64,000 bases of DNA from Longimicrobiales bacterium. Lineage in GTDB: Bacteria > Gemmatimonadota > Gemmatimonadetes > Longimicrobiales > Gaopeijiaceae. The notes below the pieces were generated by a model. The model did not search any database. It saw only the letters and a program-made list of their open reading frames with translations, and was not told the origin of the DNA. The translations under genes and the position numbers were made by a program. This document shows, piece by piece, positions 1,868-57,961 of this stretch (the first letter of the stretch is position 1; each line of letters opens with the position of its first letter). The DNA is taken from positions 1,600,001-1,664,000 of the forward strand of contig CBDAON010000004.1 in NCBI GenBank assembly GCA_965198065.1, written 5' to 3'.

Positions 1868-1898
1868 TTCCGCGCCCTCGTGGGTTAAGGCATGCTGG

Positions 1899-2648
1899 TC
1901 AATTGTCCGCCCCGGTTCCGCCGCTCTGGCTGGCCGCACCACCGTTCCCTCCTGCGGCGGCCAGATTCTGGGCTCCTGGGGCGGCTCGCGTCGCGATCTG
2001 CTCAGCCTCCCACGCCTCGAACTCGGCCTGGGTCTGCACGATGACCGTGCCGTCCATCGTGTAATGACCGAACCCGCAGAGTTCGGCGCACCCCAGCGTA
2101 TACTCTCCGGTGGTCGTCACCTCGAACCAGATCGGGATCGTCCGCCCGGGAATCGCGTCCTGCTTGATGCGAAACGGGTACACGAAGAAGGAGTGGAGCA
2201 CGTCCTCGGACTCGAGGTGGATCACCACCGGTCGGTTCACCGGTATGTTCAGGCGGTTCAGGAGCGTGAAGTCATCGGCCGTGCGGAGCTGGCCGTCCGC
2301 GCCCGGATAAGCTGCCTCCCACTCGAACTGACGCGCCGTCAGGACGATCTCGTAGCCGTTCGTGGGGAAGGCGCTCGGGTCCTTGAGTCTTTCCCACACG
2401 CCTTTGCTCATGAAGGCCAGCCCGATCACGATCACGGAGGGCACGACGGTCCAGATCACCTCGGCCTTCGTGCTCCCGTGAGTGTATTCGGCCTTCTGAC
2501 CTTCTCTCGCCCGGTACCGGAACAGGAAGTAGACCAGGAGGACCTCGGTGAGGACGAACACCGCGCCCGTGACGATCAGGATGGCGTAATAGAGGCGGTC
2601 GATGTCCGCGCCGTAAGTCGACACGCTCTCGGGGAGCAACCAGTTCAT
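1899..2648 (-). CDS. ctaC: Cytochrome c oxidase subunit II (CuA; no fused cytochrome c)
   Basis: Two TM helices, EVIWT, QFEW, DVLHSF and CuA motif CAELCGFGHYTM. No CxxCH. Confidence 0.96.
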   Translation of the reverse strand: MNWLLPESVSTYGADIDRLYYAILIVTGAVFVLTEVLLVYFLFRYRAREGQKAEYTHGSTKAEVIWTVVPSVIVIGLAFMSKGVWERLKDPSAFPTNGYEIVLTARQFEWEAAYPGADGQLRTADDFTLLNRLNIPVNRPVVIHLESEDVLHSFFVYPFRIKQDAIPGRTIPIWFEVTTTGEYTLGCAELCGFGHYTMDGTVIVQTQAEFEAWEAEQIATRAAPGAQNLAAAGGNGGAASQSGGTGADN

Positions 2649-2698
2649 TCGCTCTCGTCTCCTGATCCCGCCGCTGACGGGACTCGGTCAGAGGTTGA

Positions 2699-3556
2699 TC
2701 AAAAACCTGCGGCGCTCATGGCGACCGGCCCGTGGTCGTGCGGATCGAGCGGCTCCCCTAGCGGAACGACCGCGTTCGCGATCATCCCCTCGTTGAACGT
2801 GAACGTGACCTCAGCCGTCTGCCCGGTCGTCACGGTAACCGTCTGCTCCTGGGTCCCGAGCTGCGAGTGCCAGGCCTCGATTACGTACTCACCCGGCGGG
2901 AGATCTCTCAGATCGAAGGTACCCCCGGCGTCCGAGGCCGCGTGATACGGGTGCGAAGTTACCCCGACGAACGCGTACATCCACCCGTGCACGTCGCACT
3001 CGATCGGAATCATGATCTCGGGAGAGGCGAGCGTTCGATTCATCGTCGGGACCGCCCCTGGCATCCCGAAGTTGAAGGGCCGGTTCGTGGAGGGCGACCC
3101 GCTGACGTTGTGGAGCACGCCGTCCGAGTTACGGAACGTGAGAGTCTGGTCCGCTTGCACGCCGACGACGTGAGGGATGTATTGGCAGCCGTCCTGGTTG
3201 ATCTCGACCGCGGCGCCCGGCACGGGGAAGGTCATGCCCTCGAGCCCCTCCCTCACGTAGATGAAGACGTCGGCCAGGTGCCCGTCTGCGACCTTGAAGT
3301 CCTCGGTCGTGGGGGGCGTCGGGTGCTTGGCCGCACACGCCTCCTCCGAGGATACGTCGATCGGGGAGTTGGCGGGTGCCGTTCCCTCGAACATAACTAT
3401 CCCGCTCACGTGTCCGGCCGTTGCCACGTCGAAGGGCATCTCCGCCGGAGCGGCCGCGGCGCCGCCGCCACCGGAGTCTCCCCCTCCGCATCCCACGGCC
3501 GCGACCGTGAGAACCGCGGGTGCCAGGGCCTTGAACAGCCTCTGCTTCTTTCTCAT
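2699..3556 (-). CDS. Lipoprotein with cupredoxin-like core and carboxypeptidase-regulatory-like C-terminal domain
   Basis: Signal peptide ending AAVGC (lipobox). Contains CQYIPHV, LHNV, CDVHGWM and LPPGEYVIEAWH. Confidence 0.8.
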   Translation of the reverse strand: MRKKQRLFKALAPAVLTVAAVGCGGGDSGGGGAAAAPAEMPFDVATAGHVSGIVMFEGTAPANSPIDVSSEEACAAKHPTPPTTEDFKVADGHLADVFIYVREGLEGMTFPVPGAAVEINQDGCQYIPHVVGVQADQTLTFRNSDGVLHNVSGSPSTNRPFNFGMPGAVPTMNRTLASPEIMIPIECDVHGWMYAFVGVTSHPYHAASDAGGTFDLRDLPPGEYVIEAWHSQLGTQEQTVTVTTGQTAEVTFTFNEGMIANAVVPLGEPLDPHDHGPVAMSAAGF

Positions 3557-3559
3557 GGT

Positions 3560-5221
3560 CTATCCCTCCGGAGTGAGTTCAAGTTCAGGATCAAGTCGAA
3601 GCGCCTGCGACCGCAGGGGCCGCTTCCACCCCCCCTCCTGCTCCCGCTTCTTCGCGCGCCCAACGGCGAGCAGCCCGAGGCCTCCGGTGAGCAGGAAGGC
3701 GACGAACGGCGCGATATAGGTGGAAGGAGGCGTCTCCTCCTCGAGGGTGAGGAAGTACCAGGTGCTGATGGCACCTCGCGTTCCGTCTTCACCACTGTCT
3801 CCGTCCCAGGCGAAGAACGCGACCGGGACCGGTCGGCCGAGCTCGAAACGCAGCTCGCCCTCCCCATCGGTCGGCTCGAACGCGCGGTGGAACACGACTT
3901 GCCACTGTCCGTCTATCCACTGGGCGTCGGAGGTGAGGCCCCCCGCCCCCATCGTCTGGATGTCGCCGATCCCCCGGGCGGTCGCCCGCTGGGCCCCCGC
4001 CTGGTCGCCCTGCCACTGCCAGAGATGGACCGGCGTGCGCGAATCCCCCATAAGAAAGTACGGCCTATCCATCGCTTCCGGGATCTCGACCGGGAGCTGC
4101 ACCGTGAGCCGGTCGGGCCGCGCCCCGGGCTCCCGCCCCGTTCCCTGCGGCTGGAGGGAGGCGAGCACGCGGGGCTGCCAGAGCTCGAGCCACTGGGGAT
4201 CGGGGCTCTGGGAGCGGTCGGTCCAACTCACCCGGATCGCCAGCTCCGCGCTGTCGTGGATGCCCTGGACCCACACGGACCTCACCGCCGGTTCGAACGC
4301 CCGGTCGCCCGTGATGATCTGTCCGACGAGGGGAACGTAGAACGACTCCACGCCGTTCCAGCGCTCGTCCGAGGCCGTTGTCGGAACCCCGGTTCCCTCC
4401 TCGGCGCGCTCGACCACGATGACCTCCCGGACCTCCGGAGGATCCTCGGGAGAGAGGCTGCGCACGTAATGGGCCAGGCTCCACATCTGCTCGTCGGTCA
4501 TGAATCCCGCGTCGAGCAGGTCGGCGAACTGCGGCATCGGGGTCCCGTCGAGCCCGGTGCGGAGCCTCCGAGAGATGTCCTCGACGCTGCCGCCGCCCGT
4601 GAACCGCCAGTTCTGCGTGAGATCGGCCGCGTGAATGGGGTTCTCCCAGTCGTCCTCGAGCTCGGCCGAGCCCGGGCCGTCGCCTCGCCCCGTCTGGCCG
4701 TGGCACTGCCAGCACTCGATCTCGTCGTAGAAGCGGCGTCCCTCCTCGAGCCGCTCCTCAGAGGCGCTCCCCGCGCCGGAGAAGCTGAGCGGAGTGGGAG
4801 CCGGCAGGCTCTCGAACTGCGGATAGAAGCTCTTCACGTACTGGACGAGCGCCTGGCGATCGCTCTCCGGGAGGAGGTCCTCCCACCCGGGCATCGTCGT
4901 GCCCGGCATCCCCAGATTGATCACCTCGAGGATGTCGTCGTCCGTCGGGATGTCGCCACCGGCGGTCGTCCGAATCTGGAAGAGCCCCCGCGTGAAGTCC
5001 CTCGGCCTAGGCAGCATGTACTCGGCGGCCACGCCCATCCCGTCGCCCTGGAGACCATGGCACTGGGAGCACCACTGCTCGTAAACGACCCGACCGGGCT
5101 CGACGTCCTGGGCCTGAGCGGGCGCGGGGACGAGCGTGCCTGCTGCGCCGAGCGTGCTCGTCAGGAGCATTGAAACCATCGCGCCGGTCACTACCGCGGG
5201 GATGCTCGTGGTTGGGCGCAT
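3560..5221 (-). CDS. Membrane-anchored diheme cytochrome c fused to a DOMON-like (EbdC-type) domain
   Basis: Signal peptide (AQA), CSQCH and CWQCH, GMPGTTMP and GTPMP distal-Met motifs, YFLMGD, VAFFAWDG, C-terminal TM helix. Start ATG 5221 or GTG 5224, overlapping the upstream stop. Confidence 0.88.
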   Translation of the reverse strand: MRPTTSIPAVVTGAMVSMLLTSTLGAAGTLVPAPAQAQDVEPGRVVYEQWCSQCHGLQGDGMGVAAEYMLPRPRDFTRGLFQIRTTAGGDIPTDDDILEVINLGMPGTTMPGWEDLLPESDRQALVQYVKSFYPQFESLPAPTPLSFSGAGSASEERLEEGRRFYDEIECWQCHGQTGRGDGPGSAELEDDWENPIHAADLTQNWRFTGGGSVEDISRRLRTGLDGTPMPQFADLLDAGFMTDEQMWSLAHYVRSLSPEDPPEVREVIVVERAEEGTGVPTTASDERWNGVESFYVPLVGQIITGDRAFEPAVRSVWVQGIHDSAELAIRVSWTDRSQSPDPQWLELWQPRVLASLQPQGTGREPGARPDRLTVQLPVEIPEAMDRPYFLMGDSRTPVHLWQWQGDQAGAQRATARGIGDIQTMGAGGLTSDAQWIDGQWQVVFHRAFEPTDGEGELRFELGRPVPVAFFAWDGDSGEDGTRGAISTWYFLTLEEETPPSTYIAPFVAFLLTGGLGLLAVGRAKKREQEGGWKRPLRSQALRLDPELELTPEG

Positions 5222-6006
5222 CACTCGAGCTCCTCCCAGGTCCGAGGTGCAACCCCGGCCTGCTCGTAGAGGAAGATGGTGACGGCCCAGATCTCTTCCG
5301 CGGTCAGGAACTCCTCCCACGCCGGCATCGCGGAGTTCCAGGGCGCCCCTTCGCTGGGAAGGCCGGGTCCCCCCTTCGCGATTCGCCAGAAGACAAAGCT
5401 CTCGGTGAGCTGCGCGATAGTGCCGCCGCCCCGGAGGGTAAGAGGCTGGGGATTGAACCCCAGGGCGAAGTGCCCGAGCCCGTCCAGGTAGTCTCCATGG
5501 CACGCGAGGCAGTTCTGGTAGTAGACCCTCTTTCCGACCTCGAAGGCCTCCTCCACCCGTCCCTCTTCCCGGAGCGGGTTTTCGAGCCCGTTCAGGACCA
5601 TCGTCTCGCCCCGGAACGTGATCTGCGTTGGGTTCGCGGGATGGATGGAGCGGAGCGAGGGCGGGGCCGCGAACTTCGGGCGCACGGTGTCGTAGGTGAC
5701 GACCGCGACCAGCGCCGGGACGAGCACCAGGAAAGTGGCCCTCAGGATCCGGCGCTCGGGCTTCACGAGGAGGCTCCAGATCGGACCCTGGAATGTCCTC
5801 CATCTCTCCTCGTCGGAGCTGACCCACACCAGGAGCCCCACCAGCACGGTCACCGTATACTGGAACACGACGCTCGACGGAACCGGCGCGCTGGCAACAC
5901 CCAGGACGGGCGGGACATAGGGGATCCCGAAGCGGATCACGACGAAAGCCAGGACGACGACGAGCACCGACTGCCAGAATGGGTGCCCGAGGAAGTGTTT
6001 CATCAC
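5221..6006 (-). CDS. Membrane-bound monoheme cytochrome c
   Basis: Three N-terminal TM segments, CLACH, SAMPAW distal Met. GTGA overlap with the upstream gene. Confidence 0.9.
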   Translation of the reverse strand: MMKHFLGHPFWQSVLVVVLAFVVIRFGIPYVPPVLGVASAPVPSSVVFQYTVTVLVGLLVWVSSDEERWRTFQGPIWSLLVKPERRILRATFLVLVPALVAVVTYDTVRPKFAAPPSLRSIHPANPTQITFRGETMVLNGLENPLREEGRVEEAFEVGKRVYYQNCLACHGDYLDGLGHFALGFNPQPLTLRGGGTIAQLTESFVFWRIAKGGPGLPSEGAPWNSAMPAWEEFLTAEEIWAVTIFLYEQAGVAPRTWEELE

Positions 6007-6788
6007 TGCATTCCCGAGAGGTAGCCGACCACCGCCTCGAGCTGGGTGGCGGACAGGCGATCCCCGAAATTGGGCGGCATCATCATCACGAGTTCCTCGT
6101 ACCCTGCCGACGCCTCCGCCTGCGGATCCAGGATCGCGCGGCGGATCTCCTCGGGCGTGAGCCGGGCGCCCACCTGGGTCAGGGGGGGGCCCACCGGAGT
6201 GCCCTCACCTCCGATCTGATGGCACTGGAAGCAGAGGGTCAGGGTGATCACGGCGGGATCGGTGGAAGCGATCTCGAACCCGCCGGCCGGAGTGGCCCCT
6301 TCGGGCGCTGCCTCGGGCGGGATGTCCGCCCCTGTGACCGTGACCTCGCCGCCGTTCGACTCCAGGTACGCCACGATGGACCAGATCTGGGCCTGGCTCA
6401 TTGTGCGGTCTAGCGCCAGCATGATGGGCGGGAAGTCGTCCACGAGGTGATCGGTGGGCGCCACAAGGGATTGATGAAGGTATTCCTTGCAGGACAGGCC
6501 TGAGATACGGGTGCCGCAGCGTGCGCCGATCGTGCCCTGGCCCTCGTAGTCAGAGAGCAGGTTCGGCGCGCGCGCACCCGGAGACTCGGCGTGGCAGGCG
6601 GTGCATCCTCCGGCGCCGGTGAAGAGCGCCTCTCCGGCCGAGACGAGCTCCTCTGGGGAGATGTCGGCCCCGAAGGCCAGCACTTCCGGCACCTCGGACT
6701 GGACCTGTGGAATGATGTTGGCCACCAGCGTATAGAACCCGATGGTGGCGAGCACCACCCCACCGACCTTCAGATCTATCGAACCCAT
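6003..6788 (-). CDS. Membrane-anchored diheme cytochrome c
   Basis: N-terminal TM, CTACH and CFQCH, PIM and MMPP distal Met candidates. Confidence 0.9.
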   Translation of the reverse strand: MGSIDLKVGGVVLATIGFYTLVANIIPQVQSEVPEVLAFGADISPEELVSAGEALFTGAGGCTACHAESPGARAPNLLSDYEGQGTIGARCGTRISGLSCKEYLHQSLVAPTDHLVDDFPPIMLALDRTMSQAQIWSIVAYLESNGGEVTVTGADIPPEAAPEGATPAGGFEIASTDPAVITLTLCFQCHQIGGEGTPVGPPLTQVGARLTPEEIRRAILDPQAEASAGYEELVMMMPPNFGDRLSATQLEAVVGYLSGMQ

Positions 6789-6802: not shown

Positions 6803-8629
6803 TCAGTGGCCCGGGGCGGGTTGGAGCCCCGTGTCCAGGTCTCGTCCACGCCCCTCTTCAGGGCCGCCAGCCATCGCCGGACGGGGCGCCGGCGTCGCCT
6901 CACGGGCCTTCACGGGGGCGATCTCCGGCTTCGCGATCATCCCCCCGATCCAGAACACGAACGCGATCATGGCGAGGAACAGGAGCACGCACCCGCTGAT
7001 GACCTGCGCTGCGTACCCGAGGGCTGGCGTGGCCGCATAGTCGCTAGTGTCGCGCAAGACCTCGTAGACGTGCCAGTGCTGCCGGATCCCGCTTCTCGCG
7101 AATCCCATGAGGCCCATGAGCCACGTGAAGGTCACGACCAGCACGAAGAGGGCGTATTGCGACCGCGGGGGCATCTGCCCCCAGCGGATCTCGCCCCGCG
7201 ACTGGGCGCGGCGCGCGATCAGGATGTCGAGCGTGAGGACGGCGAAGATCGTGAAGATGACGATGAGCACCTGGTAGACCGAGAAGCCGATCCGCACGAT
7301 CGCCGGGACGAAGTAGCCCCAGATCCCGTAGAACAGGACCACGAGTGCCGCCACCCCGATCACGATCCCCTGGGTGATCGTCCCCGTCTTTGCCCACGAC
7401 ACGGCGGGAATCTTGTTCGCGCGACGGTAGAGGAGGAACGACAGGAACGTGGTCAGGATCATCAGGTTCACAGCCGTGTTCTTCGCGCTCATGACCCCGA
7501 GGGCGCCGAGGAAGGGGTGGAACGTGCCGCCCATGGCGGTCAGCTCCTCCCGGTCGGCAATCATCGAATGGGGCGTGGCCCACACGATCACGCCAATCAC
7601 GAGAACGAGGAGCATCCATTTCGTGTAGGGCGCGAACCGCTCGCCCCCGGGGATCCGTCCCAGGCCCACCCAGAGATAGTAGTTCCCAGCCAGGAAGAGG
7701 ACGCCGATGAGGAAGGCCTGCACGATCCAGAGCCAGCTCATGAAGCCGCCCATCATCGTGACGCCCAGCTGCTGGTTGAACTCGTAGATCTCACGGCCCA
7801 GCCAGTACCCGGCGAAGGGGAGGAGAAGGAAGGTCCCGATCGCGATGAAGTTCCCGACGTAGCCCATCCAGTCGTAGTGCGCCCGCTCCTCCTCGGACTC
7901 GGACTTGAGGAAGCGGTACGCGGCGTACGCGGCCACGATCGACCCGCCGAACACCACGTTCGCGATGAGCCGGTGGATGTTGATGGGCATCCAGGTGGCG
8001 TTCGCGAAGGCGCTCCAGAACTGGACCGTCTCGGGAGCGACGTCCGGCGTGAGCTCCCCGGGAGGGCTCATCATGAACGTGATCCACGCGTTCGCGATGA
8101 ACATCACGACCGTTCCCCAGACGTTCAGGAGCAGCCCCAGCCCCCAGTGGACGAGCTTCGCGCGTCCCTTCTTCCAGTGCTCCCACCCGTAGTAGTACGT
8201 GTAGAGCGTCGCCGACTCGAGGAAGAAGAGCGCCGCGTAGACCCACATGGAAACCCGGAACACGGAGCTCAGGTAGCTCCAGAGCTGCGGGTACTGCGTC
8301 GTGAGGAGGAAGAGGAAGAGCCCCCCGAGGAGCGCCGTGGCGCTGTATGCCACGAGGAGGAGGCGCGTGAACTCCTTTGCGAGGCCGTCGTAGCGCTTGT
8401 CGGTCCCGAAAATCCCGATCGCCTCCGCGATCACGGCGAACATAGGCACGCCGAGCACGAAGGCGGCGAACATGAGGTGTACCTGGGCCACGATCCACAC
8501 GGCGGCCCGGCTCCCGATGAGCGGCACGTCGGCCCCGTACGCGGGCGGGGCATAGCCCTGAGCGAAGAGCGGGATCGCCACGGCGGTCGCGGCGAGTGCC
8601 AGGAGCCCGGGCAGGATCCTCCGCTTCAT
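6803..8629 (-). CDS. Cytochrome bd-like oxidase subunit (CydA fold, no quinol-binding loop)
   Basis: About 13 predicted TM segments. AQVHLMF (CydA H19 equivalent), FFLES (E107), INIHRL (H186), RSGIRQHW in place of GRQPW. No Q-loop and no adjacent cydB. Confidence 0.85.
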   Translation of the reverse strand: MKRRILPGLLALAATAVAIPLFAQGYAPPAYGADVPLIGSRAAVWIVAQVHLMFAAFVLGVPMFAVIAEAIGIFGTDKRYDGLAKEFTRLLLVAYSATALLGGLFLFLLTTQYPQLWSYLSSVFRVSMWVYAALFFLESATLYTYYYGWEHWKKGRAKLVHWGLGLLLNVWGTVVMFIANAWITFMMSPPGELTPDVAPETVQFWSAFANATWMPINIHRLIANVVFGGSIVAAYAAYRFLKSESEEERAHYDWMGYVGNFIAIGTFLLLPFAGYWLGREIYEFNQQLGVTMMGGFMSWLWIVQAFLIGVLFLAGNYYLWVGLGRIPGGERFAPYTKWMLLVLVIGVIVWATPHSMIADREELTAMGGTFHPFLGALGVMSAKNTAVNLMILTTFLSFLLYRRANKIPAVSWAKTGTITQGIVIGVAALVVLFYGIWGYFVPAIVRIGFSVYQVLIVIFTIFAVLTLDILIARRAQSRGEIRWGQMPPRSQYALFVLVVTFTWLMGLMGFARSGIRQHWHVYEVLRDTSDYAATPALGYAAQVISGCVLLFLAMIAFVFWIGGMIAKPEIAPVKAREATPAPRPAMAGGPEEGRGRDLDTGLQPAPGH

Positions 8630-10044
8630 CCCTTCCCTCCGTTTCGAAGGAAGAAAGGAAGACGGCGGGAGAAATCCACGGGCATTCGCCGGCGAACTTC
8701 CGCGATGAGATCGAGATCGACGGTCTCGTGTCCCTCCCGGCGCGCGAACTCCTCCACCCGGTTCACTACGACTCCACGTACGAAGCTCGGGATCCGGTCG
8801 ATGCGGGCCTCAGCCTCGGCACTCCAGCGGAGCGTGCGCACGGCCTTCGCGCTGTAAGTCACGGCTGGCCGGGGCCGAACGACCGGCCGCCCGCCGGGCG
8901 GATCGTACGCGCAGGACTCGTCCGGGCCGAGGAGGTCGCCTGTTTCCGCGTGCGCGCGCGCCCTGCAGCCCCCGCACACCTCCCGGAACTCACAGCGACC
9001 GCACTTGCCGCCGAGCGTTCCGGCGCGAAGCGAGCGAAAGACGGGAGAGCCATCCCAGATCTCGCGGAAGGACGACTCCCTGAGATCGCCCGCGACGACC
9101 GGCGTATACGGGCACGGCGTCACCTTCCCTTCGGGCGTGATGCGGCAGTAGTGGAGGCCGCAGGGGCAGCGGGTCGCGTAATTCAGGAGCGGTGAGTCGG
9201 GATCGCCCAGGGAGACATGGCGCATCAGCTGTGGTTGGCACTTCGACCGGACCATCATCCGCCCGCGATAATCGGCCTCGAGGGTCATCAGCTCTCGAAG
9301 GACGTCTTCGTTCTCCGCCGCTGAGAGGCCCTCCATCTGCTTCCCCCGGCCCGTAGGCACGAGGAAATACACGTTGAACGAGACGGCTCCACGGTCCGCG
9401 GCCCACGCCGCGAGGCGGACCAACTCGCGCCGGTTTCCGCGGGTGAGGCTCGTCTGGATCACGAAGTCCAGCTCGTGCTCGACGAGGCGATCCACGGCGG
9501 CCAGCGTGTCCGTCAGGGCGCCCTTCCCGTGGCGGAAGCGGTCGTGGTACTCGGGGTCGAGCGAGTCCACGCTCACGGCGACGCCTGTCACTCCGGCTGC
9601 CTTGAGCGACCCGATCCGCGCGGACGTCAGCCGGGTGCCGTTCGTGCCGACCACCACGGTGGCCCCCCGCTCCGCCGCGTGCTCGGCGACCTCCTCCAGA
9701 TCCTCGCGGAGGAGCGGCTCTCCCCCCGACAGGATCAGCATGGGGCTCGGGTTCACCTCGAGGAGCTCGTCCAGGACTCGGTGACACTCGTCCGTCGACA
9801 GCTCGCCGTCCGCCGCGTGCCAGGAACCGGCCGAGATGTAGCAGTGGGCGCACGCGAGGTTACAACGCTTAGTGAGGTTCCACGCCACCACGTGTGGAAG
9901 GAACGTCTCCGCTTCCGAGCCGAGCGAGGCGAAGCGCTCGGCAAGGGCCCGGCGGCCCCACGGAGCCGGCCGGGGCGTCAGGAGGGCGCCGAGCCCCTCA
10001 CCGGAGCCCGCCGGTAGAGAGGTTCGATCGAGGGAAGAGCTCAC
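8626..10044 (-). CDS. Radical SAM/SPASM protein of the AhbC/AhbD/NirJ group with C-terminal PCP_red domain
   Basis: CNLACAHC, SGGEPLLR, SPASM cysteines CPCG...PCPY...CGRCEFREVCGGC...C, tail WSAEAEARIDRIPSFVRG. GTG 10044 overlaps the upstream TGA. Confidence 0.9.
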   Translation of the reverse strand: MSSSLDRTSLPAGSGEGLGALLTPRPAPWGRRALAERFASLGSEAETFLPHVVAWNLTKRCNLACAHCYISAGSWHAADGELSTDECHRVLDELLEVNPSPMLILSGGEPLLREDLEEVAEHAAERGATVVVGTNGTRLTSARIGSLKAAGVTGVAVSVDSLDPEYHDRFRHGKGALTDTLAAVDRLVEHELDFVIQTSLTRGNRRELVRLAAWAADRGAVSFNVYFLVPTGRGKQMEGLSAAENEDVLRELMTLEADYRGRMMVRSKCQPQLMRHVSLGDPDSPLLNYATRCPCGLHYCRITPEGKVTPCPYTPVVAGDLRESSFREIWDGSPVFRSLRAGTLGGKCGRCEFREVCGGCRARAHAETGDLLGPDESCAYDPPGGRPVVRPRPAVTYSAKAVRTLRWSAEAEARIDRIPSFVRGVVVNRVEEFARREGHETVDLDLIAEVRRRMPVDFSRRLPFFLRNGGKG

Positions 10045-12071
10045 TCGTCGGCGTCCTCCGCCCCCGACATGAACCGTTCGACCGCGGCACGGGCGTCCTC
10101 CGGGGAGACCATCTTCAGGTCCACCGGGCACTTCTCGACCTGCTTCTCCACGTCCCGGATAGGGCAGCGGGTGATCCCCTGCGCCTTCGCCTCCTCGATG
10201 AACTTTCTCATCTCGGGGGTGAGCCCGTCCACGCCCTCGGCTGCCGCCCTGATCTGCTTGGTCTGGAGCTCACGGAACATCACGAGCATGGTGTCCATAT
10301 CGAACTCGTCGGCCTCGATCATGGCCTGTTTGTTCTCATCCATGATCGGGGTCGTGACCTGCCACACCGCGTGCTCCTTCGCGAAGCGCTCCACCGTGTT
10401 TCGAGCGAGAGGGCGGGCGACGAGCGGGACGGCGCGGAGCCGCTCGAACGCCTCCTCCGTCCAGACGATCGGGTCGTGGGCGTTCCGCTCGCGGGTCTGG
10501 AGGTGTCCCGTGTAGGGGCACGTCACCTCGATCGTGGGAGCTTCCGGTACCGGGTCCGCGTCGCTCCCCTGGACCACCGTGCGCCGCATCGCCTCCTCGG
10601 CCTTCACCTCGGCCAGCGCCAGTTCTTCGGCCGTCCCGATTCCCATGATGAGCTGCATGTGGGTGGGGAGGAGCTTCTGGATCGCTTCGTCAAGCCGCTC
10701 ACCCGTAACGGTCGGAAGCAGATCCATCGCGTGCGCCCCGTTCCCGTCCGAGCGGGCCGTCCGGCCCCCGTAATTCTCGAGGACGAACTCCTCCACCGCT
10801 TTTCGCGCGATGCCCAGCGCAAACGGCGGCACCCTCAGGATCCGGACTTCGGCGTCGGGCGCCCACTCGAGCCCCTTCTCGCCGTCCTCCTCGATCCACG
10901 GGATGTCGTCGGGGCGCACGTCGGTCGTCCCGACCAGCAGAACGTTCGTGGGCGCGAGCCGGCAGAGGTTTTCGGCCTGCGAGCCCATGTCCGTGCCCTC
11001 CACGCGGTGGCCGCCGTGACGGGCGACGATCAGGAGCGAGGGGTCGATCTCCTCAGCCCACTGCAAGATGCACTGGAAGGGCTTTCCGATGAGGATCTGG
11101 GTCTCCAGCTCCACGTCTGGGAACTCGCTCGCCATGATCTCGGCGCGCTTCAGGTTTGCCTGGCAGAGCTTCAGGAGCCCCTTGTCGATTATGTTGTTGT
11201 GGAGCTCCTCCTGCTCCTCGAACTTGAAGACCTTCGCGGCCTGCGCGGAGAGGACGTCCTTGATGTTGCCGAAGACGACGTGGTGATACTCCACGTCGAA
11301 GGCAGAGCAGGCGTACAGCTTTGCGCCGAACTCCCGGGCCAGCTCGAGCGCGACCCGCATCGCCTTGTAGGAATAGGACGACCCGTCCACGCAGATCATC
11401 CAGCGACCCCCCTCGAGCGGGCGGTCATTCCGGACGATCAGCGTGTCCTTCTCGACCCTCCGGATCACGCGCGAGACCACGCCGCCTAGCTGGGAGAAGG
11501 GCTGTCGCCCGATCCCGTGGGCTCCGATGCAGACGAGGTCGTAACGCCGGCCGCTCTCCCCAGCGAGCTTCTCGTCCTGGGATTCGTCCTCCGCCACGAT
11601 GCGGCCGTCCTCGTCGAGCCGGACGTCGCTTCGCACGGTTGAGCCCCCGTCGTACTTGTCCGCGATGTTGGGGTCGAAGCCGATGAGGCTCGGAAGCCGG
11701 CCCGCGCCTCGATCGGCCTCGCGGATGATCTCCTCGAAGTTGATCCCCTCGAGTAGCTGACGGGTGAGGGGAACGCCGGACTCCTGGCAGTACCGCTCGG
11801 TCTGATCCAGGAAAGAGTCCGAGATGAGCTGGAGGCCCTTCTCGATCAGCTTGTCGTGGACCTTTCTCTGCCGCTTGATCTCTTCGGGAGTCTGAAACTG
11901 CGCGGGGAGGCCGGTTTCGAGCTGCCGGAACCGAACGTCGTGGAGACGGGCGGCGTAGACGTGGTTCCCGGTGATACGGCCCTCGGATCTCTTGGTGATC
12001 TCGACGGCTCTCTGTACGGCCCACTGAGAATGGGACGAGTTATCGACCGGAACGAAGATCTCGCGGTACAT
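10041..12071 (-). CDS. Tandem universal stress protein (2x USP) fused to two PCP_red-like domains
   Basis: MYREIFVPVDNS and ICVDGS USP starts, GAHGIG...LGGVV and ARHG...MGSQAE USP ends, then WAPDAEVRILRVPPF and WTEEAFERLRAVPLV. ATG 12071 with AGAGG RBS. Confidence 0.85.
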   Translation of the reverse strand: MYREIFVPVDNSSHSQWAVQRAVEITKRSEGRITGNHVYAARLHDVRFRQLETGLPAQFQTPEEIKRQRKVHDKLIEKGLQLISDSFLDQTERYCQESGVPLTRQLLEGINFEEIIREADRGAGRLPSLIGFDPNIADKYDGGSTVRSDVRLDEDGRIVAEDESQDEKLAGESGRRYDLVCIGAHGIGRQPFSQLGGVVSRVIRRVEKDTLIVRNDRPLEGGRWMICVDGSSYSYKAMRVALELAREFGAKLYACSAFDVEYHHVVFGNIKDVLSAQAAKVFKFEEQEELHNNIIDKGLLKLCQANLKRAEIMASEFPDVELETQILIGKPFQCILQWAEEIDPSLLIVARHGGHRVEGTDMGSQAENLCRLAPTNVLLVGTTDVRPDDIPWIEEDGEKGLEWAPDAEVRILRVPPFALGIARKAVEEFVLENYGGRTARSDGNGAHAMDLLPTVTGERLDEAIQKLLPTHMQLIMGIGTAEELALAEVKAEEAMRRTVVQGSDADPVPEAPTIEVTCPYTGHLQTRERNAHDPIVWTEEAFERLRAVPLVARPLARNTVERFAKEHAVWQVTTPIMDENKQAMIEADEFDMDTMLVMFRELQTKQIRAAAEGVDGLTPEMRKFIEEAKAQGITRCPIRDVEKQVEKCPVDLKMVSPEDARAAVERFMSGAEDADE

Positions 12072-12384
12072 TACGAACCTCTGACTCGGAGCCGCAGTTT
12101 CCTTCGTTCCCCCGGTCACACCACCACCAGTGATCCCACTCCGCGGATCGGTCGGGTCTATGGCCCGCACTCGCCACCGGCTCTCCGTCGGGGAGCCAAC
12201 CCACGAGCCCTTCGGGGCCGCGCTCTGGGACGGCTCACTTGTACGAGATTCTCTGCGAAACCGAGACCGATAGCGGGAGGACCCGGTCAGGCACAGTCGG
12301 ACACGGGAGCCGAACCCCGACTGCGCCCGAGGATAGCCCGTCCGTTCGGACGATCCGCGCCCTCCAAGACCGCACCGCGTGGCC

Positions 12385-12413
12385 AGTATATCTGGCCCCT
12401 ATATGGCTGTCAA
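12385..12413 (-). promoter_or_regulatory. Near-consensus sigma70 promoter for the USP-rSAM-oxidase operon
   Basis: Minus strand TTGACA (12413-12408), 17-nt spacer, TATACT (12390-12385). Overlapped by the inverted repeat GGCCAG-N5-CTGGCC (12381-12397). Confidence 0.75.
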
Positions 12414-12450
12414 CTCGCTTTCGTGACGCATCCGTGCGGGGAGTGAAACG

Positions 12451-13170
12451 CTATCGGAGAGCAGCGCTGATCCGTTTGAGGAGGGCGCTCGACAGGGCCG
12501 TCGAAGCCAGGAGAAAGAAGACCAGAACCGCTGCGGCCGGTAGCATGTCCCAGCCCCCCGGGGGTGCAACCCCCTGCGCTCCCGCCAGGAAGACCTCGTG
12601 AAGGGGACGGTAGGGAAGAATCATCTCGATCCGGGCCCCGAGGCTGCCTGGAGCCGGCGTTCGGAAGACTCCGGATCCGTGGAGCAGGAAGAGGGAGAGG
12701 ACCGCGGCGAGAAGGGCGCCCTCGGCCATCGAGGCCGCGAAGGCCGCGACCCAGAGCCCGACGAGGTTTGCGGTGAGGAGGGCGAGGAACAGGGCCGGGA
12801 CGACGGCCGTCCATACCGTGACCCCGGCGCGGCCCGCTCCGAGTACGAGCGCCATGGCCGGGAGGAGCTGGAGGAGATCGAGGGCGGTTCCCGCCATCAT
12901 GCGCTCGACCACGAACCTCGGCTCCGGGAAGCCGCTTAGGATGATTCTCCGAAGTGGTCCACCGTCGGCCTCCCGGAGGAGCGGGATCGTGGAACCGAAC
13001 GTTCCAAAGAGGACGAAGAGCACCGCGTAGGTCGCGGACGCGTGGTACGCCGGCGCGCCCCCGAGCGCGAGCGGCGCGACGAGTAGCACGGGCGTCGCGA
13101 CGTTGAACGCCATGAGGCGCCTGCGCCGGAGCGCGATCCGCCACTCGACCGCGAAGACGTCGAGGCTCAC
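12451..13170 (-). CDS. ABC-2 type exporter permease
   Basis: About 6 hydrophobic segments and an EADGGPLRRIILSG loop. GTGA-coupled to the upstream ABC ATPase. Confidence 0.8.
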   Translation of the reverse strand: MSLDVFAVEWRIALRRRRLMAFNVATPVLLVAPLALGGAPAYHASATYAVLFVLFGTFGSTIPLLREADGGPLRRIILSGFPEPRFVVERMMAGTALDLLQLLPAMALVLGAGRAGVTVWTAVVPALFLALLTANLVGLWVAAFAASMAEGALLAAVLSLFLLHGSGVFRTPAPGSLGARIEMILPYRPLHEVFLAGAQGVAPPGGWDMLPAAAVLVFFLLASTALSSALLKRISAALR

Positions 13171-14201
13171 GGCCGTTCCGGAGACGGGAGATCGGCCGAG
13201 AGCTCGAGCGGCTCTCCCGTGACAGCGTGGAACAGGTCGCCCAGCTCGGGCTCGCGAACCCGGACCCGCGTGATCGAGACGCCCTTTGCGAGAAGCCGGG
13301 TAAGGAGCTCGGGGAGCGGAGTGGATCCGCGGGTGCTCTGAACGACGATGGCCTCCCCTCGGCCATCCGACGACACCGCCCGCCGGACCGACTCCGCCCC
13401 CGGCACCGTCTCCAGCTCCCAGGTCGAGCCTGTGCGCTCACGGTCGTGGTCCGGCCGGAGGGTGCCGACGAGCTCGATCTCGATCGTGGTCTTCCCATCG
13501 AGTCGATCGAGGAGCTCGGCGAGCGGGGCGTCGATCGCGATCGATCCCCGATGGAGGAAGAGGATGCGATGAGCCCACCGGGAGGCTGCCCGGGTATCGT
13601 TCGTCGCAATCACGGCGGCGCCTCCGGCGGCTGCGCGCTCGCGGACGGCTTCCTCGAGCGCACGGGTCCCCGCGGGGTCGAGCCCGACCGTGGGTTCGTC
13701 CAGGAGCAGGAGAGGGGGTCGGAAGGCCAGGGTCTCCACGAGAAGGAGCTTCCGCCGCATCCCGAACGAGAGCTCGCTCACGGGCACGTCTCCGACCTCC
13801 TCCAGGCCGAAGGCCGCGAAGAGCTCCGAGACGCAGGCCCCTCCACGGCCATCCCGGCCGCCCCGGAGCCCCGTGAAGAAGCGGACGCTCTCGCGCGCCG
13901 TGAGGTGTGCGAAATGGCGGGGGCTGTCGGGTGCGTACCCAATCCCGGGTCGGAGCCGGCGAACGGACCCGCGGACGCGCTTGCTCAGGAGCGAAAGCGA
14001 GCCCACGGTCGGGCGGAGATCGGTCGCCAGGAGCCTGAGCAGCGTGCTCTTTCCGGAGCCGTTCGGGCCGATGGCCGTCACGATCTCACCCGGACCCACG
14101 GAGAAGCTCACGGGACCGAGACCGGTCCGCCCCGACCGGTACCGGTATCCCATCCCCTCCGCGAGGATCAGAGGTCCCAGCCGGCCCGTGCCAGCATCCA
14201 C
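13167..14201 (-). CDS. ABC transporter ATP-binding protein
   Basis: Walker A GPNGSGKS, signature LSFGMRRK, Walker B LLLLDEPT. Start uncertain (GTG 14201). Confidence 0.9.
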   Translation of the reverse strand: MDAGTGRLGPLILAEGMGYRYRSGRTGLGPVSFSVGPGEIVTAIGPNGSGKSTLLRLLATDLRPTVGSLSLLSKRVRGSVRRLRPGIGYAPDSPRHFAHLTARESVRFFTGLRGGRDGRGGACVSELFAAFGLEEVGDVPVSELSFGMRRKLLLVETLAFRPPLLLLDEPTVGLDPAGTRALEEAVRERAAAGGAAVIATNDTRAASRWAHRILFLHRGSIAIDAPLAELLDRLDGKTTIEIELVGTLRPDHDRERTGSTWELETVPGAESVRRAVSSDGRGEAIVVQSTRGSTPLPELLTRLLAKGVSITRVRVREPELGDLFHAVTGEPLELSADLPSPERP

Positions 14202-14584
14202 AGGTTTCCGACCACGATGACCATCGCGGTGACATAGAAAGAGGACGGAAGCTCCGAGCCGGGGAGTGGGAAGAACGCCCCCTGGATGAGGGCGGGGAGG
14301 CGAAGCCCGTGAAGGGCCCAGATGACCCTCGCCAGCCACGGGTTCTGCCAGCTCCAGAGCCCCCACGTCACGCTGGCGAGGATCGCCGTGCCGAGGAGGA
14401 GCCAGAGCCACACCGGTCCGCGCTCCGCCGGGAGGACTCCAGCCCGAGACATGGCCCAGACCGAGAAGAGATAGAGGAGGCCTACGTGCAGGTAGACCAT
14501 CGCGGCCTGCCGGAACTTCCGGCTCCGTGAGGCGGCCTCGGGGGTCCCCTCGAGCCCGGGCACCGAGGCGTCGGGAGTCATCAC
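14168..14584 (-). CDS. Small integral membrane protein (about 4 TM), unknown function
   Basis: Hydrophobic segments after RKFRQAA. Start GTG 14584 or ATG 14581, coupled to the upstream stop. Confidence 0.7.
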   Translation of the reverse strand: MMTPDASVPGLEGTPEAASRSRKFRQAAMVYLHVGLLYLFSVWAMSRAGVLPAERGPVWLWLLLGTAILASVTWGLWSWQNPWLARVIWALHGLRLPALIQGAFFPLPGSELPSSFYVTAMVIVVGNLWMLARAGWDL

Positions 14585-15027
14585 ATGCCTTCGAGCCCGA
14601 GCTCCGACCTGGCCGTGTCCATGACCTCGGGGGTCAGAACGCGGATGTCCCGCTCCCGCGCGTAATCCGTGTAGATGCGCTTCACCATCCCGCGAACGAA
14701 ACCGGGAACGCGCTGGAGACGCTCGACCGCTTCGGGGCTCCACTCCACGGGTCCCGGCCCACCTCCTGCCTCGGGCGGCTGAAACGCCGACTCGCTTCCC
14801 GCCTCGAGCGTGCTGCGCGTGACCTCGAGCGGTTGAGCGGGCACCTCGCGTCCCCCGATTCTCACTCCCATCGAGCTCACGAGCTGCGTTTCCATGGGGT
14901 TCGTGAGGAGCGCCATCTCGCGCCGACACTTGCCGCACGAGAAGACCGCCGCGAGCGTGCCGTCGCCCGGGATCTGGCGCTCGACGAACTCCATGACCTG
15001 ATCGCACTCGACGCAGAGGAACTTCAT
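14581..15027 (-). CDS. Zinc-ribbon-like Cys4 domain plus PCP_red domain protein
   Basis: MKFLCVECD...FSCGKC, then WSPEAVERLQRVPGFVRGMVKR. ATGA overlap with the Mrp stop. Confidence 0.8.
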   Translation of the reverse strand: MKFLCVECDQVMEFVERQIPGDGTLAAVFSCGKCRREMALLTNPMETQLVSSMGVRIGGREVPAQPLEVTRSTLEAGSESAFQPPEAGGGPGPVEWSPEAVERLQRVPGFVRGMVKRIYTDYARERDIRVLTPEVMDTARSELGLEGM

Positions 15028-15968
15028 GGGACCTCTTTCGGCTTCGACGAGCGACCTTCCCCGGACGCGCTCGACGGGCGGCTCGCGCCGGCCTGCTCGA
15101 CGCGCTCTGCAAGCGCGCGGAAGGCTCTGCCCACGGTCCCATCGGGGACCTCGAGGACAATGGGTTGCCCCCGGTCCGTGCTCTCGGCCAGGCGGGGGTC
15201 GAAGGGGATTTGCCCCCACACGGCCACCCCGCTCTCCGAGGAGAGGCGCTCAATCCCGTCACCCCGGAAGATCGGCTCCGATCGACCGCAACCGGGACAG
15301 ACGTACTCGGTCATGTTGGCTACGAGCCCGATCTGGGGCACGCCAGCCTCGCGGATCAGACGGATGGACCGCGAAACGACGGCGCGGGACATCTCCGAGG
15401 GTGTCGAAACCACGAGGACCGTCGGCAGATCGGGCACGAGCTCCAGGAGCCTCCGGATCTTGTCTGTTCCGGGCGGGACGTCCACTAGGAGGAAGTCTGG
15501 GGATCCCCACGCCACGTCGCCGAGAAACTCGCGGAGGGCCGTCGCCTCCATGCTGCTCTGCCAGAGGAAGGTATCGGAGGCGGGCTCCTTCCATCTGAGC
15601 GGTGCGTCCTGGGCATCCTGGAGGAGCTCCATCGAGATGACGCGCACACCTCCGGCTCCGGAGACGGGGACGACCCCCCCCTCGCCGTCCTCTAGGCTTC
15701 GGCCGGTAACCCCGAGCATCCTCGCGAGGGACGGTCCGTTCAGGTCGGCGTCCACCACACCCACATGCTGACCGCGGGCCGCGAGCGTCGCGGCGAGGTT
15801 GGCGGTGACGGCGCTCTTCCCGACTCCCCCCTTCCCGCTTGCGACGGCCAGGACCATACCGACGCCGGACAGGCGCTCTGCGAGCCGAGCTCTTTGTTCC
15901 AGGACTTGCTCCAGGAGCTCGGACCCCGTGCCGTGGTCTACCTCGTGATAGGTTCGGAACTTTCTCAC
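15024..15968 (-). CDS. mrp: Mrp/ApbC/NBP35 Fe-S cluster carrier ATPase
   Basis: SGKGGVGKS deviant Walker A, DADLNGPS, DVPPGT, NMTEYVCPGC, IPFDP. Confidence 0.9.
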   Translation of the reverse strand: MRKFRTYHEVDHGTGSELLEQVLEQRARLAERLSGVGMVLAVASGKGGVGKSAVTANLAATLAARGQHVGVVDADLNGPSLARMLGVTGRSLEDGEGGVVPVSGAGGVRVISMELLQDAQDAPLRWKEPASDTFLWQSSMEATALREFLGDVAWGSPDFLLVDVPPGTDKIRRLLELVPDLPTVLVVSTPSEMSRAVVSRSIRLIREAGVPQIGLVANMTEYVCPGCGRSEPIFRGDGIERLSSESGVAVWGQIPFDPRLAESTDRGQPIVLEVPDGTVGRAFRALAERVEQAGASRPSSASGEGRSSKPKEVP

Positions 15969-16216
15969 GGAACAATCTGTTTCCCGTCGGGGTCATGTAC
16001 TTGGATGGCGTCCACCGGGCAACTTCGGCACGCCGCGACGAGTTCGGCGTGCTCGACGGCAGAAGCCCCTGGGCGCAGCACCGCGATTCCTTCTCCATCG
16101 AGCTCGAAGGCCTCCGGGCTCGCCTTGATGCAATCCCCGAACCCAACGCAAATGAGCCGGTCGATACGAATCGTGAGCTCGCCGATCCGCTTCTGCTCGA
16201 AATGGGCCAAGATCAC
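15965..16216 (-). CDS. Single-cluster ferredoxin, probably [3Fe-4S]
   Basis: CVGFGDC...CRSCPVDAI, with the second cluster Cys position occupied by Phe. GTG 16216 behind AGGAG. Confidence 0.85.
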   Translation of the reverse strand: MILAHFEQKRIGELTIRIDRLICVGFGDCIKASPEAFELDGEGIAVLRPGASAVEHAELVAACRSCPVDAIQVHDPDGKQIVP

Positions 16217-18600: not shown

Positions 18601-18790
18601 ATGAGAAGCCGGAGCATTGTCGCTCCTTTCGCGGTGGTTCTCGTGATCGGTTGCGGGGACTTGGGGCCTCAGGAATCGGCCCGCATCCGGACCGATTCAC
18701 ATGGTGTATCGCCTTGAGCACTATGTCGAACCAGACGGCCGCCTCGCCCCCGACATCTACCACGTGGTGGTCTCCGTGCCATGGCCGCGC
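18601..18790 (+). pseudogene. Possible frameshifted remnant of a small lipoprotein gene
   Basis: ATG 18601 encodes MRSRSIVAPFAVVLVIGC (lipobox) and stops at 18717. Removing one base near 18699 continues it into MVYRLEHYVEPDG. Confidence 0.3.
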
Positions 18791-18967
18791 TCGTCTCGGG
18801 CAGCCACGGGAGGGCGCGCGCGACTCGCACCTTCTCACGCGCAGTACCCTTGTCCGGCGCTGGCGCGCGGACGTCTCGGCGGCCAGGCACGCGGTGCGCC
18901 CGCCGAGCCGACGGCCGGCCCTTCCGAGCCACGGTCCCGATTACCGTCTCCGACCGGGGCCCGCCTG

Positions 18968-56679: not shown

Positions 56680-56705
56680 GGTCCCTGGCCTGACCTGGCG
56701 ACCCG

Positions 56706-57371: not shown

Positions 57372-57894
57372 GGGCTCTCCCGTCCGAGTCCTCCTCCATC
57401 CTCGCCGGACGACTGGACTCCAGGATCCGACGCGCGGCCGCGATCCGATCGGGACCGGCGGTGACGTAAACTCCGAACCGCCCCGCGGAGAGCTCCGGAT
57501 CGTACACCACGTCCGACTTGAGCGAGGGAATGCGCATGTTCCAGAGCACCCCGATCACGGTCGCGAAGACCCCGAAGAGAATCGCGAGCTCGAACGAGAT
57601 CACCACGTAGGCCGGGATTGAGACGATCGGCTTTCCGCCGGTGACAAGCGGCCAGTCCACCGCCGAGAACACCGTGAAGGCGAATCCCGTGGCTGCGCCC
57701 GTCAACCCTCCGATCAGCGTGAAGAGTCGTACCGGGCTCGACCCGTACCCGAGCGCGTCCTCGATGTGGTGCTCGGGGAACGGCGCGAAGGCCGTGATCT
57801 CCTCGAAGCCCTCCTTTCGGAGCGCCTTGATGGCCTCGACCGTTGAGTCGAGGAAGTCGTAGGAGGCGAGCACCCCCTGGTGCGACCCGCTCAT
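57364..57894 (-). CDS. actD: Alternative complex III subunit D (DUF3341)
   Basis: FAPFP, WPLVTGGKP, FELAILF. Lies between actC and actE. Confidence 0.9.
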   Translation of the reverse strand: MSGSHQGVLASYDFLDSTVEAIKALRKEGFEEITAFAPFPEHHIEDALGYGSSPVRLFTLIGGLTGAATGFAFTVFSAVDWPLVTGGKPIVSIPAYVVISFELAILFGVFATVIGVLWNMRIPSLKSDVVYDPELSAGRFGVYVTAGPDRIAAARRILESSRPARMEEDSDGRAHG

Positions 57895-57961
57895 CGGGCG
57901 CCCTCCGGTGTGCCGGGTCGGGCCTCCGCCGGGCCCGCCGAGCCGCGGCCGACCGCGGGCC

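Follow-up and report, generated by a model that had tools for sequence, protein, structure and literature searches.

Gene content and organisation of the locus

The window is a 64,000-nucleotide stretch of a Longimicrobiales genome, and all of the features described in this section lie on its reverse strand. In the direction of transcription the first gene encodes a small ferredoxin, likely of the [3Fe-4S] type (15965..16216; Pfam Fer4_15, 38.6 bits), which has the motif C-x5-C...C-P, Phe taking the place of the second Cys. This is followed by a diverged Mrp/MinD-family ATPase (15024..15968; ParA, 231 bits) and by a short protein, here called Cys4 (14581..15027), that consists of a CxxC-x22-CxxC zinc ribbon, a linker and a C-terminal PCP_red domain, with C5, C8, C31 and C34 invariant in 52 sequences. 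A 4-TM membrane protein with no Pfam match (14168..14581), an ABC ATPase (13167..14153, start approximate; ABC_tran, 93 bits) and an ABC-2 permease (12451..13170; ABC2_membrane, 22 bits, below the cut-off) come next. Beyond these lie a tandem universal stress protein (USP) of 676 residues with the tandem-USP fold, two copies of PCP_red and helical insertions that contain His (10041..12071; Usp and PCP_red), an AhbD/NirJ2-related radical SAM-SPASM enzyme with a C-terminal PCP_red (8626..10044, start uncertain; Radical_SAM and SPASM) and the bd-like CydA (6803..8629; Cyt_bd_oxida_I, 72 bits). On the same strand this gene is followed by others that the initial annotation had not mentioned, namely those of three c-type cytochromes (3560..6788), conserved after cydA in both lineages and ending with one that has a heme b domain of the ethylbenzene-dehydrogenase-gamma type, and coxB-coxA-coxC. 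Of the latter, which belong to an aa3-type oxidase, coxB and coxA occupy 89..3556 together with a carboxypeptidase-regulatory-like lipoprotein; this second oxidase is not the client that we favour.

The genes had been described as mostly joined by ATGA/GTGA overlaps. Such overlaps are present between ferredoxin and Mrp, Mrp and Cys4, Cys4 and the 4-TM protein, ABC ATPase and permease, USP and radical SAM, and radical SAM and cydA, but a gap of 380 bases between the permease and USP had been overlooked. The gap contains a near-consensus sigma-70-type promoter-like site (12385..12413; 11 of 12 consensus positions) that heads the series USP, radical SAM, cydA, cytochromes and coxBAC. Among 78 related loci, 44 have a similar site no further than 400 bases upstream of USP, against none of 78 coding controls. 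Judged from the sequence, this conserved promoter-like site makes the USP and the radical SAM enzyme the first genes of the oxidase operon. FNR-type control of the USP operon was considered and set aside, as just one of the 78 upstream regions has an FNR-like box. The ABC-2 exporter and the 4-TM protein had also been counted among the module's parts; both are optional, occurring in 10/49 and 25/49 loci respectively.

PCP_red domains outside photosynthesis

PCP_red is the C-terminal domain of BchB/ChlB. A search of the 3.05-Mb genome (87.6% complete) with Pfam PF08369 recovered the four copies in three neighbouring genes that had been recognised by motif, each where it had been placed, and these were the only matches. 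That the motifs score as PCP_red holds, at the Pfam threshold of 32.5 bits, for the three whole proteins (radical SAM 48.1 bits, Cys4 51.4 bits, USP 46.6 bits in two stretches) and for the single copies in the radical SAM enzyme (8692..8826; 53.5 bits), in Cys4 (14608..14742; 53.5 bits) and at the second position in USP (10329..10463; 37.3 bits), but not for the first USP copy (10776..10865), which is interrupted by an insertion of approximately 20 residues that shifts its second half and which by itself scores 22.6 bits. Homologues of the USP carry the domain up to five times or more per protein. By Pfam, no Oxidored_nitro domain precedes PCP_red in the radical SAM enzyme, USP or Cys4, and they are not the BchB/ChlB of DPOR, whereas that domain was found in control PCP_red matches from two other genomes. 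Outside the genomes that carry the module, PCP_red was seen in four genomes besides one stray contig, and the two that were checked are BchB.

The bd-like oxidase and its co-distribution with the helper genes

The fold of the CydA-like protein matches CydA, and its H51, E138 and H219 align with bd residues. It has the CydA N-terminal helices with the His19 equivalent and many more helices, and no CydB match was found in its genome, which together assign it to the OR-N type. It also shows invariant extra histidines (161, 251, 371 and 520) and a Tyr at a proton-channel Glu position. OR-N bd-like oxidases are proposed to be the principal oxygen reductases in bacteria that oxidise nitrite or manganese, and their subunits, cofactors and function are called uncharacterised and experimentally unconfirmed (PMC10839748).

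The co-occurrence of USP and radical SAM with the bd-like oxidase, which had been put forward from this one locus, is borne out within the phylum, where one set of 43 genomes out of 151 contains the CydA-like protein together with the USP and the radical SAM orthologue. In a second phylum the USP and an OR-N-type CydA are found in the same 15 of 201 genomes, each of which also has the radical SAM enzyme (12 identified by search and 3 by inspection). All 58 sampled genomes with a bd-like oxidase carry USP and radical SAM and almost none without the oxidase do, counts that overstate the association since neighbouring genes are inherited or transferred jointly and related genomes are not independent. 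A single genome (G048) has the helpers and lacks CydA. Three genomes have second bd-like clusters whose examined stretches contain no module genes, save a short USP-like C-terminal match in one. The linkage of helpers and oxidase outlasts changes of gene order. The ferredoxin is found in 48 of 49 loci of relatives and was not seen in second-lineage loci. Cys4 adjoins Mrp in 65 of 67 loci, and neither gene was present at the G254 locus. No USP match was found on plasmids. The core genes travel with the OR-N oxidase, which is their likely client.

It is very unlikely that the module instead serves the aa3 oxidase of the operon or its heme b/c cytochromes. In its favour, 47 of 48 long loci continue with coxB and coxA, 42 of 43 carriers have a CoxA with 65% identity or more, and the cytochromes are always found with cydA. 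Against it, 141 of 151 genomes possess CoxA, two genomes that lack the module (G065 and G124) have CoxA of the same type, and in the second lineage coxBAC is encoded on the other strand. In the co-distribution data the cytochrome partners are inseparable from CydA. A role of the bd-like protein as a replacement for alternative complex III was rejected, as ActD is present in 144 of 151 genomes, including in this window.

The radical SAM enzyme and the heme pathway

The best HMM matches of the radical SAM enzyme are tetrapyrrole enzymes, NirJ2 (TIGR04055, 285 bits) and AhbD (TIGR04545, 278 bits), against cut-offs of 500; the AhbD-like references, at 438-458 bits, likewise fall under the TIGR04545 cut-off. 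The enzyme has CX3CX2C and the complete eight-cysteine SPASM motif of Methanosarcina barkeri AhbD (C268-C377; tested as CX20-33CX17CX36-37CX2CX5CX2CX17-35C). The full motif is present in 64 of 67 relatives, and in the second lineage in 16 of 29 proteins by strict spacing and in 29 of 29 when a longer first spacer is allowed. The module enzymes form their own clade (SH-aLRT 97), with weak deeper placement in a quick tree of long branches and few references, in which two own-genome outgroups aligned badly. The AhbD-like proteins of 438-458 bits, from same-phylum genomes with AhbC-like genes, branch apart from it.

The genome encodes HemE, HemH and a ChdC-family protein. Being 87.6% complete, it gave no match to AsnC_trans_reg2 (AhbA/B) and no second close radical SAM, and the siroheme-route context (AhbA/B, AhbC) was not found. 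Its scores under the AhbD thresholds, its separate clade and its coexistence with ChdC-family genes in 38 of 43 carriers lead us to distinguish the enzyme from housekeeping AhbD. The three observations which the initial annotation had named as contrary to its proposal (motifs that do not score as PCP_red, occurrence independent of the oxidase, a housekeeping AhbD) were looked for and none was found. ChdC-family genes are present in 38 of 43 module carriers, leaving five with no match, and in 25 of 108 other genomes; with both enzymes in the 38, the radical SAM is not a replacement for ChdC. In four genomes heme-pathway genes adjoin the cluster, all four having been picked for that reason.

The ChdC enrichment among carriers would fit an ordinary AhbD-type oxygen-independent heme b synthase acting as a whole-cell backup for ChdC at low oxygen, with the operon merely shared, as would the full AhbD cysteine motif and the report of AhbD in coproporphyrin-pathway bacteria that have no other ahb genes (PMC13564367). 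We regard such a backup as unlikely. The 25 ChdC-family genomes manage without the module while no OR-N carrier does, the same-phylum AhbD-like proteins branch apart, FNR-like boxes are nearly absent upstream, the putative Nitrospira marina orthologues described below are not induced at low O2, and the USP, Cys4, Mrp and PCP_red tails would all be left unexplained.

The USP as a proposed carrier or partner

H37, H44, H72, H263 and H291 are invariant across all 89 USPs compared, which reach down to approximately 30% identity. The USP fold is present together with the nucleotide motif G-x2-G-x9-G-(S/T), which we take to be the ATP-binding motif of USPs; the copy in the window has Gly for Ser 197 and Ala for Gly 350. 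Homologues in other phyla have rubredoxin-like inserts.

In the proteome study of N. marina, a 699-residue UspA adjoins a 460-residue radical SAM/SPASM protein beside SAM synthetase, all of which were detected, and an Mrp-like ATPase adjoins a PCP_red protein, both also detected (PMC8115632); orthology to the module is judged here from size and adjacency. The putative USP was approximately as abundant as the oxidase (NSAF 0.11-0.14 versus 0.15-0.19), and in the same study the putative module orthologues were not induced at low O2 (PMC8115632). Four other UspAs of N. marina were O2-regulated, unlike the putative orthologue. This abundance looks more like that of a standing partner than of a catalytic helper.

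An alternative would have the USP serve the oxidase as a lasting partner in the cytoplasm or as a regulator that senses ATP, and the radical SAM enzyme modify a protein, by a cross-link in CydA or in the USP, and not a tetrapyrrole. The intact nucleotide motifs of the USP, its near parity with the oxidase in those N. marina data, and the extra histidines and Tyr of CydA would all be consistent with this. SPASM enzymes modify proteins too, and the nearest solved relatives of the radical SAM enzyme are the peptide maturases PqqE and SkfB. Nevertheless, its best HMM matches are tetrapyrrole enzymes, it contains the first SPASM cysteine that separates AhbD from anSME, PqqE and MftC, and some genomes have heme-pathway genes next to the cluster, so that we find protein modification rather improbable.

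The Mrp-like ATPase and Cys4

The Mrp-like ATPase has a conserved N-terminal extension with invariant Y7 and Q21 and a MinD-type P-loop with the signature lysine; its Walker A and switch residues (S44-S52, D73, D75 and D163) are invariant. The C-terminal CxxC of Mrp/ApbC is an Fe-S ligand. It is found in the copy in the window, in 40 of 59 scored relatives (8 were not scored) and in 43 of 43 second-lineage ORFs. The Fe-S carrier role assigned by the initial annotation is therefore doubtful, since the CxxC is missing in 19 of the 59 homologues and the genome has a separate canonical Mrp.

The model of the Mrp-Cys4 complex scored 0.63, with the best of three controls at 0.00; the mark used for this score is reached by 116 of 157 solved pairs and by 2 of 215 mismatched pairs. 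At least 85% of the contacts agreed between runs and the partner pLDDT was at least 74. The predicted contacts place Mrp on the zinc ribbon of Cys4 and not on PCP_red, to which only 4 of 61 partner contact residues belong. Docking of Mrp on PCP_red was therefore rejected, and the earlier idea of PCP_red as a set of docking domains is weakened. The model may score through its resemblance to solved HypA-HypB structures, and the Mrp interface residues are scarcely more conserved than the remainder (0.59 versus 0.57). The many apparent Mrp-Cys4 fusions were not taken as evidence: most joins among 12 longer proteins have out-of-frame-looking linkers and, in the two fusion clusters looked up, six of the eight other members are of short, unfused length, for which reasons we treat them as frameshift artefacts.

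A proposed role in making and loading heme

We somewhat favour the view that these genes are a dedicated kit that makes and loads the heme of the bd-like (OR-N) oxidase, heme being the product that we infer for the module. The radical SAM enzyme would convert coproheme, from the HemE-HemY-HemH route, to heme b or to a variant needed by the oxidase, with electrons supplied by the ferredoxin. The USP would hold the heme on its paired invariant histidines (H44/H72 and H263/H291) and release it in an ATP-dependent manner, and the Mrp-like ATPase on the zinc ribbon of Cys4 may act as an ATP switch of the HypB/HypA type. Since Mrp is predicted to sit on the zinc ribbon, the PCP_red of Cys4 would be left free to reach the radical SAM enzyme, the USP or the oxidase.

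A bolder version is that the heme of OR-N oxidases, which are presumed to be the terminal oxidases of Nitrospira, Nitrospina and Manganitrophus, is one that has yet to be described; this radical SAM clade would derive it from coproheme, the USP would carry it and a HypB/HypA-like ATP switch would insert it. We hold this to be a long shot; if true, it would explain why the enzyme family is still uncharacterised and name the genes to co-express with it. More generally, the analysis provides a short, testable list of genes likely to be needed alongside an OR-N oxidase and, in the USP, a clean genomic marker for such oxidases. It also points to a candidate new function for a universal stress protein, to radical SAM chemistry on heme that may be new, and to PCP_red being used outside photosynthesis.

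Comparison with known systems

No description of this module was found in the open-access literature searched; the supplements of Murali et al. and of the Manganitrophaceae bioRxiv work may list the genes. PCP_red together with radical SAM gave no literature match, and radical SAM is unmentioned in the main text of the bd-like oxidase papers that were searched by term. Within the cytochrome bd superfamily, the oxidase resembles the OR-N family (Murali et al., 10.1101/2021.01.16.426971; Nitrospira, Manganitrophus TO_1-type clusters) in having a CydA-like subunit with no CydB and, beside it, a heme b protein of periplasmic type and two cytochromes of the c type, but the accessible parts of that literature describe the oxidase cluster and not the maturation genes.

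With BchB/ChlB (PF08369; 2YNM, 2L09) the helpers share the 45-residue PCP_red domain itself, which here is spread over three proteins that have no nitrogenase-like domain. The radical SAM enzyme resembles AhbD and NirJ2 in its cysteine motifs and best HMM matches, and differs in its scores (278/285 versus 500 bits), separate clade, PCP_red tail, tie to the oxidase and a genome with no AhbA/B. The USP has the fold and nucleotide-binding motifs of the tandem universal stress proteins Rv2623, TTHA0350 and UspE, to which long helical insertions, invariant His pairs and the PCP_red tail are added. The Mrp-like ATPase has its best structural relatives by sequence among the Fe-S carriers Mrp/ApbC/Nbp35 (3KB1, 6G2G, 8ZKC) and keeps their P-loop, whereas its subfamily has lost the CxxC in 19 of 59 members and lacks the N-terminal domain of the genome's canonical Mrp. 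The predicted pairing of this ATPase with Cys4 recalls HypB/HypA of Thermococcus kodakarensis (PDB 5AUN), in which a CXXC-Xn-CXXC zinc partner is bound by an Mrp-family ATPase dimer during cofactor insertion. Cys4, likened to HypA by motif, begins with an invariant M-K-F in place of the N-terminal MHE nickel motif and carries PCP_red, and the client would be an oxidase where that of HypB/HypA is a hydrogenase.

Organisation of the module

The initial annotation had reported four PCP_red motifs, and a Pfam search of the genome bore this out, placing them at 8692-8826, 10329-10463, 10776-10865 and 14608-14742. Three of the four scored above the cut-off individually, and the source genome (3.05 Mb, 87.6% complete) has no PCP_red beyond these matches. 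On the minus strand, the genes run in the order ferredoxin, Mrp, Cys4 (a zinc-ribbon protein with a C-terminal PCP_red), 4-TM protein, ABC ATPase, permease, a 380-base gap, USP, radical SAM and bd-like CydA, followed by three cytochromes, a carboxypeptidase-regulatory-like lipoprotein, coxB and coxA, with coxC immediately beyond the window. Outside the cluster, a gene at 18701-20282 that we take to be MutY-like is seemingly broken over two frames near 19254-19285. Directly preceding the window (C4:1588550-1596409 of the genome), a 2147-codon open frame and its neighbours, unlike the genes around them, are possibly an integrated element; they lie within what is presumably a type II/IV secretion ATPase-like region.

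Among the best 80 of 526 matches, the nearest relatives of the USP protein were from Gemmatimonadota, mostly Longimicrobiales. In the GTDB loci of these 80, USP was followed by the radical SAM in 58/58 loci with sufficient downstream sequence and CydA lay downstream in 56 of them, and the 49 loci that extend 7 kb or more upstream contained ferredoxin (48), Mrp and Cys4 (47), the 4-TM gene (25) and the ABC pair (10). The ABC pair and the 4-TM gene are therefore optional. Of 67 loci, 65 had Mrp and Cys4 side by side. Since the gap preceding USP holds a near-consensus sigma-70 site, and a similar site recurs in 44/78 related upstream regions versus 0/78 coding controls, it is likely that USP and the radical SAM head the oxidase transcript. 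In a second lineage, found on metagenome contigs, the genes run cydA, cytochromes, USP, GNAT, Mrp, Cys4, radical SAM, and coxBAC occupies the strand opposite to the module; the GNAT acetyltransferase gene lies between USP and Mrp at L133:8258-9094 and in further loci of this lineage. At the protein level, USP homologues were named from Nitrospinota, Manganitrophus, SAR324, Beta- and Gammaproteobacteria.

Distribution of the module

In a sample of 151 genomes of the phylum, USP was found in 44, and a CydA-like protein and a radical SAM orthologue (at least 59% identity) in 43 each, the same 43 genomes carrying all three, with such co-occurrence counts inflated by kinship and physical linkage. 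In nine further genomes, namely G048 and eight with AhbD-like proteins, the radical SAM matches were all weaker. PCP_red was present in 48 genomes: besides the 43 carriers these were G048 and four more, two of which were examined and encode BchB. The G048 module genes are on a 9.6-kb contig of the second-lineage type (L088, G048:C4) that is possibly mis-binned; its Cys4 is 74-92% identical to metagenome matches and its module genes are broken up by what we take to be toxin-antitoxin-like and Fic-like genes. One carrier, G066, has an extra Cys4-PCP_red copy remote from the cluster (L191:3924-4385), preceded by a presumably rhodanese-like gene.

In a second sample, 201 genomes drawn around G151 (a record labelled Acidobacteriota), USP and strong CydA matches coincided in the same 15, with weak CydA matches (28-30%) in two more; the radical SAM reached at least 66% in 12 of these 15 genomes and was located by reading of the loci in the other three. 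Carriers among the 151 genomes are scattered inside families (6/16, 27/74, 1/31 and 7/7), and the link of the module to the bd-like cluster is strong. G151 itself (L051, L199, L200) has helper genes of the Gemmatimonadota type (USP 70%) about 26 kb from a CydA of the second-lineage type, to which it is 75% identical; this genome is possibly a mosaic. Three carriers have second, divergent bd-like clusters (L089, L090, L091; about 50% identity) with cytochromes and several carboxypeptidase-regulatory-like genes, and no module genes were nearby in the fetched loci; in L089, a short stretch past the last cytochrome matches the C-terminal part of USP.

The enzyme served

The predicted CydA structure matches bd subunit I. 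His51, Glu138 and His219 are retained at bd positions, Tyr replaces the first proton-channel Glu, and four additional His are invariant across 47 sequences. Together with the lack of a CydB match, these features agree with the OR-N family as outlined in the Murali preprint; further sources are PMC3578206, PMC10839748, PMC12342949, PMC13474568 and the Manganitrophaceae preprint. No match to CydB, nor a cytochrome b of a bc complex, was found in this 87.6% complete genome. With cox genes in the same cluster, the module could instead serve the aa3 oxidase or the cytochromes. As a client, the aa3 oxidase is a poorer fit than the bd-like oxidase: CoxA is found in 141/151 genomes, and two genomes that lack both the module and CydA have the CoxA type of the cluster. 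We regard service to aa3 or the cytochromes as very improbable. The bd-like protein was also considered as a replacement for alternative complex III and rejected, as that complex is present in 144/151 genomes; here its ActA, B, C and D genes lie at 55378-62997, 40 kb from the cluster.

Proposed heme chemistry and the USP protein

We somewhat favour reading the module as a kit dedicated to OR-N oxidases, which would make their heme and load it; each chemical step is our inference. The top HMMs of the radical SAM were NirJ2 (285 bits) and AhbD (278 bits), both below the cut-off of 500, and the full AhbD SPASM motif, as defined in PMC10452713, is present in it and in 64/67 relatives. A general anaerobic heme b synthase would share this motif, a reading that we consider rather unlikely. 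In a quick 45-row tree with weak deeper branches, a single clade (SH-aLRT 97) unites the module enzymes from the two lineages and sets them apart from AhbD-like, TIGR04053 and AhbC references. The genome encodes HemE, HemH and a ChdC-family protein, with no match to AhbA/B at 87.6% completeness. Since AhbD is also noted in coproporphyrin-pathway bacteria in two reviews (PMC13564367, PMC10114771), coproheme is a plausible substrate for the radical SAM. The radical SAM as a substitute for ChdC was rejected in favour of an addition to it, as ChdC-family genes, which Pfam does not tell from chlorite dismutase, occur in 38/43 carriers versus 25/108 other genomes. Heme-pathway genes adjoin the cluster in four carriers chosen for a nearby ChdC-family gene, Pfam-confirmed in the two scanned. 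In heme-pathway operons next to the oxidase cluster, L207:2565-3638 and L206:3907-4968 encode proteins in which a ChdC/chlorite-dismutase-family domain is joined to a Rieske [2Fe-2S] domain at the C-terminus; such a protein might be an electron-acceptor-coupled coproheme decarboxylase.

The structure predicted for USP (pLDDT 82) resembles the tandem USPs Rv2623 and TTHA0350. Among 89 sequences, the majority 29-46% identical to our own, there is no variation at His37, 44, 72, 263 and 291, and all but one keep His355. Equivalent helical insertions hold the pairs 44/72 and 263/291, each with a spacing of 28 residues. These His may be heme ligands. Immediately upstream of USP in G151, L200:17000-17713 encodes a 240-aa domain without Pfam match, absent from our genome, that is fused onto the USP N-terminus in P0148 and P0144 (about 42% identity) and that presumably has a fold similar to the split barrels that bind flavin or heme.

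In the proteome of N. marina, whose proteins are presumably orthologues, the supplement of PMC8115632 records 97-132 spectra for a 699-aa UspA, with no change at low O2. According to the same source, its gene adjoins those of SAM synthetase and of a 460-aa radical SAM/SPASM protein with 18-44 spectra. The gene of an Mrp-like ATPase adjoins that of a 257-aa PCP_red protein, and a 159-aa PCP_red protein is encoded two genes from a bd-like gene and eight from the main bd-like gene, for which 130-163 spectra are listed; a third, of 328 aa, is four genes from Pup and remote from bd-like genes (PMC8115632). A further reading, which we hold to be unlikely, has USP as a standing regulatory partner and the radical SAM modifying a protein.

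Comparison with known systems

The module components are members of known families, and no published description of the whole was found in the literature searched. The module Mrp keeps its P-loop, the C-terminal CxxC is missing in 19/59 scored homologues (eight were not scored), and a separate canonical Mrp is also encoded in the genome. When Cys4 was modelled together with a dimer of Mrp, the complex scored 0.63 versus 0.00 for the best control, with runs concurring in at least 85% of contacts and partner pLDDT of at least 74; the score mark, reached by 116/157 solved and 2/215 mismatched pairs, applies only roughly to such modelling. The 61 Cys4 contact residues in the model fall in the zinc ribbon (38), the linker (19) and PCP_red (4). 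Since PCP_red has 13 nearly invariant residues and lies mostly off this interface, it may have some partner other than Mrp. The predicted pairing is like that of T. kodakarensis HypB and HypA, where, according to PMC7055735, an Mrp/MinD ATPase binds a four-cysteine zinc protein in a solved structure; the score may be owed to this likeness.
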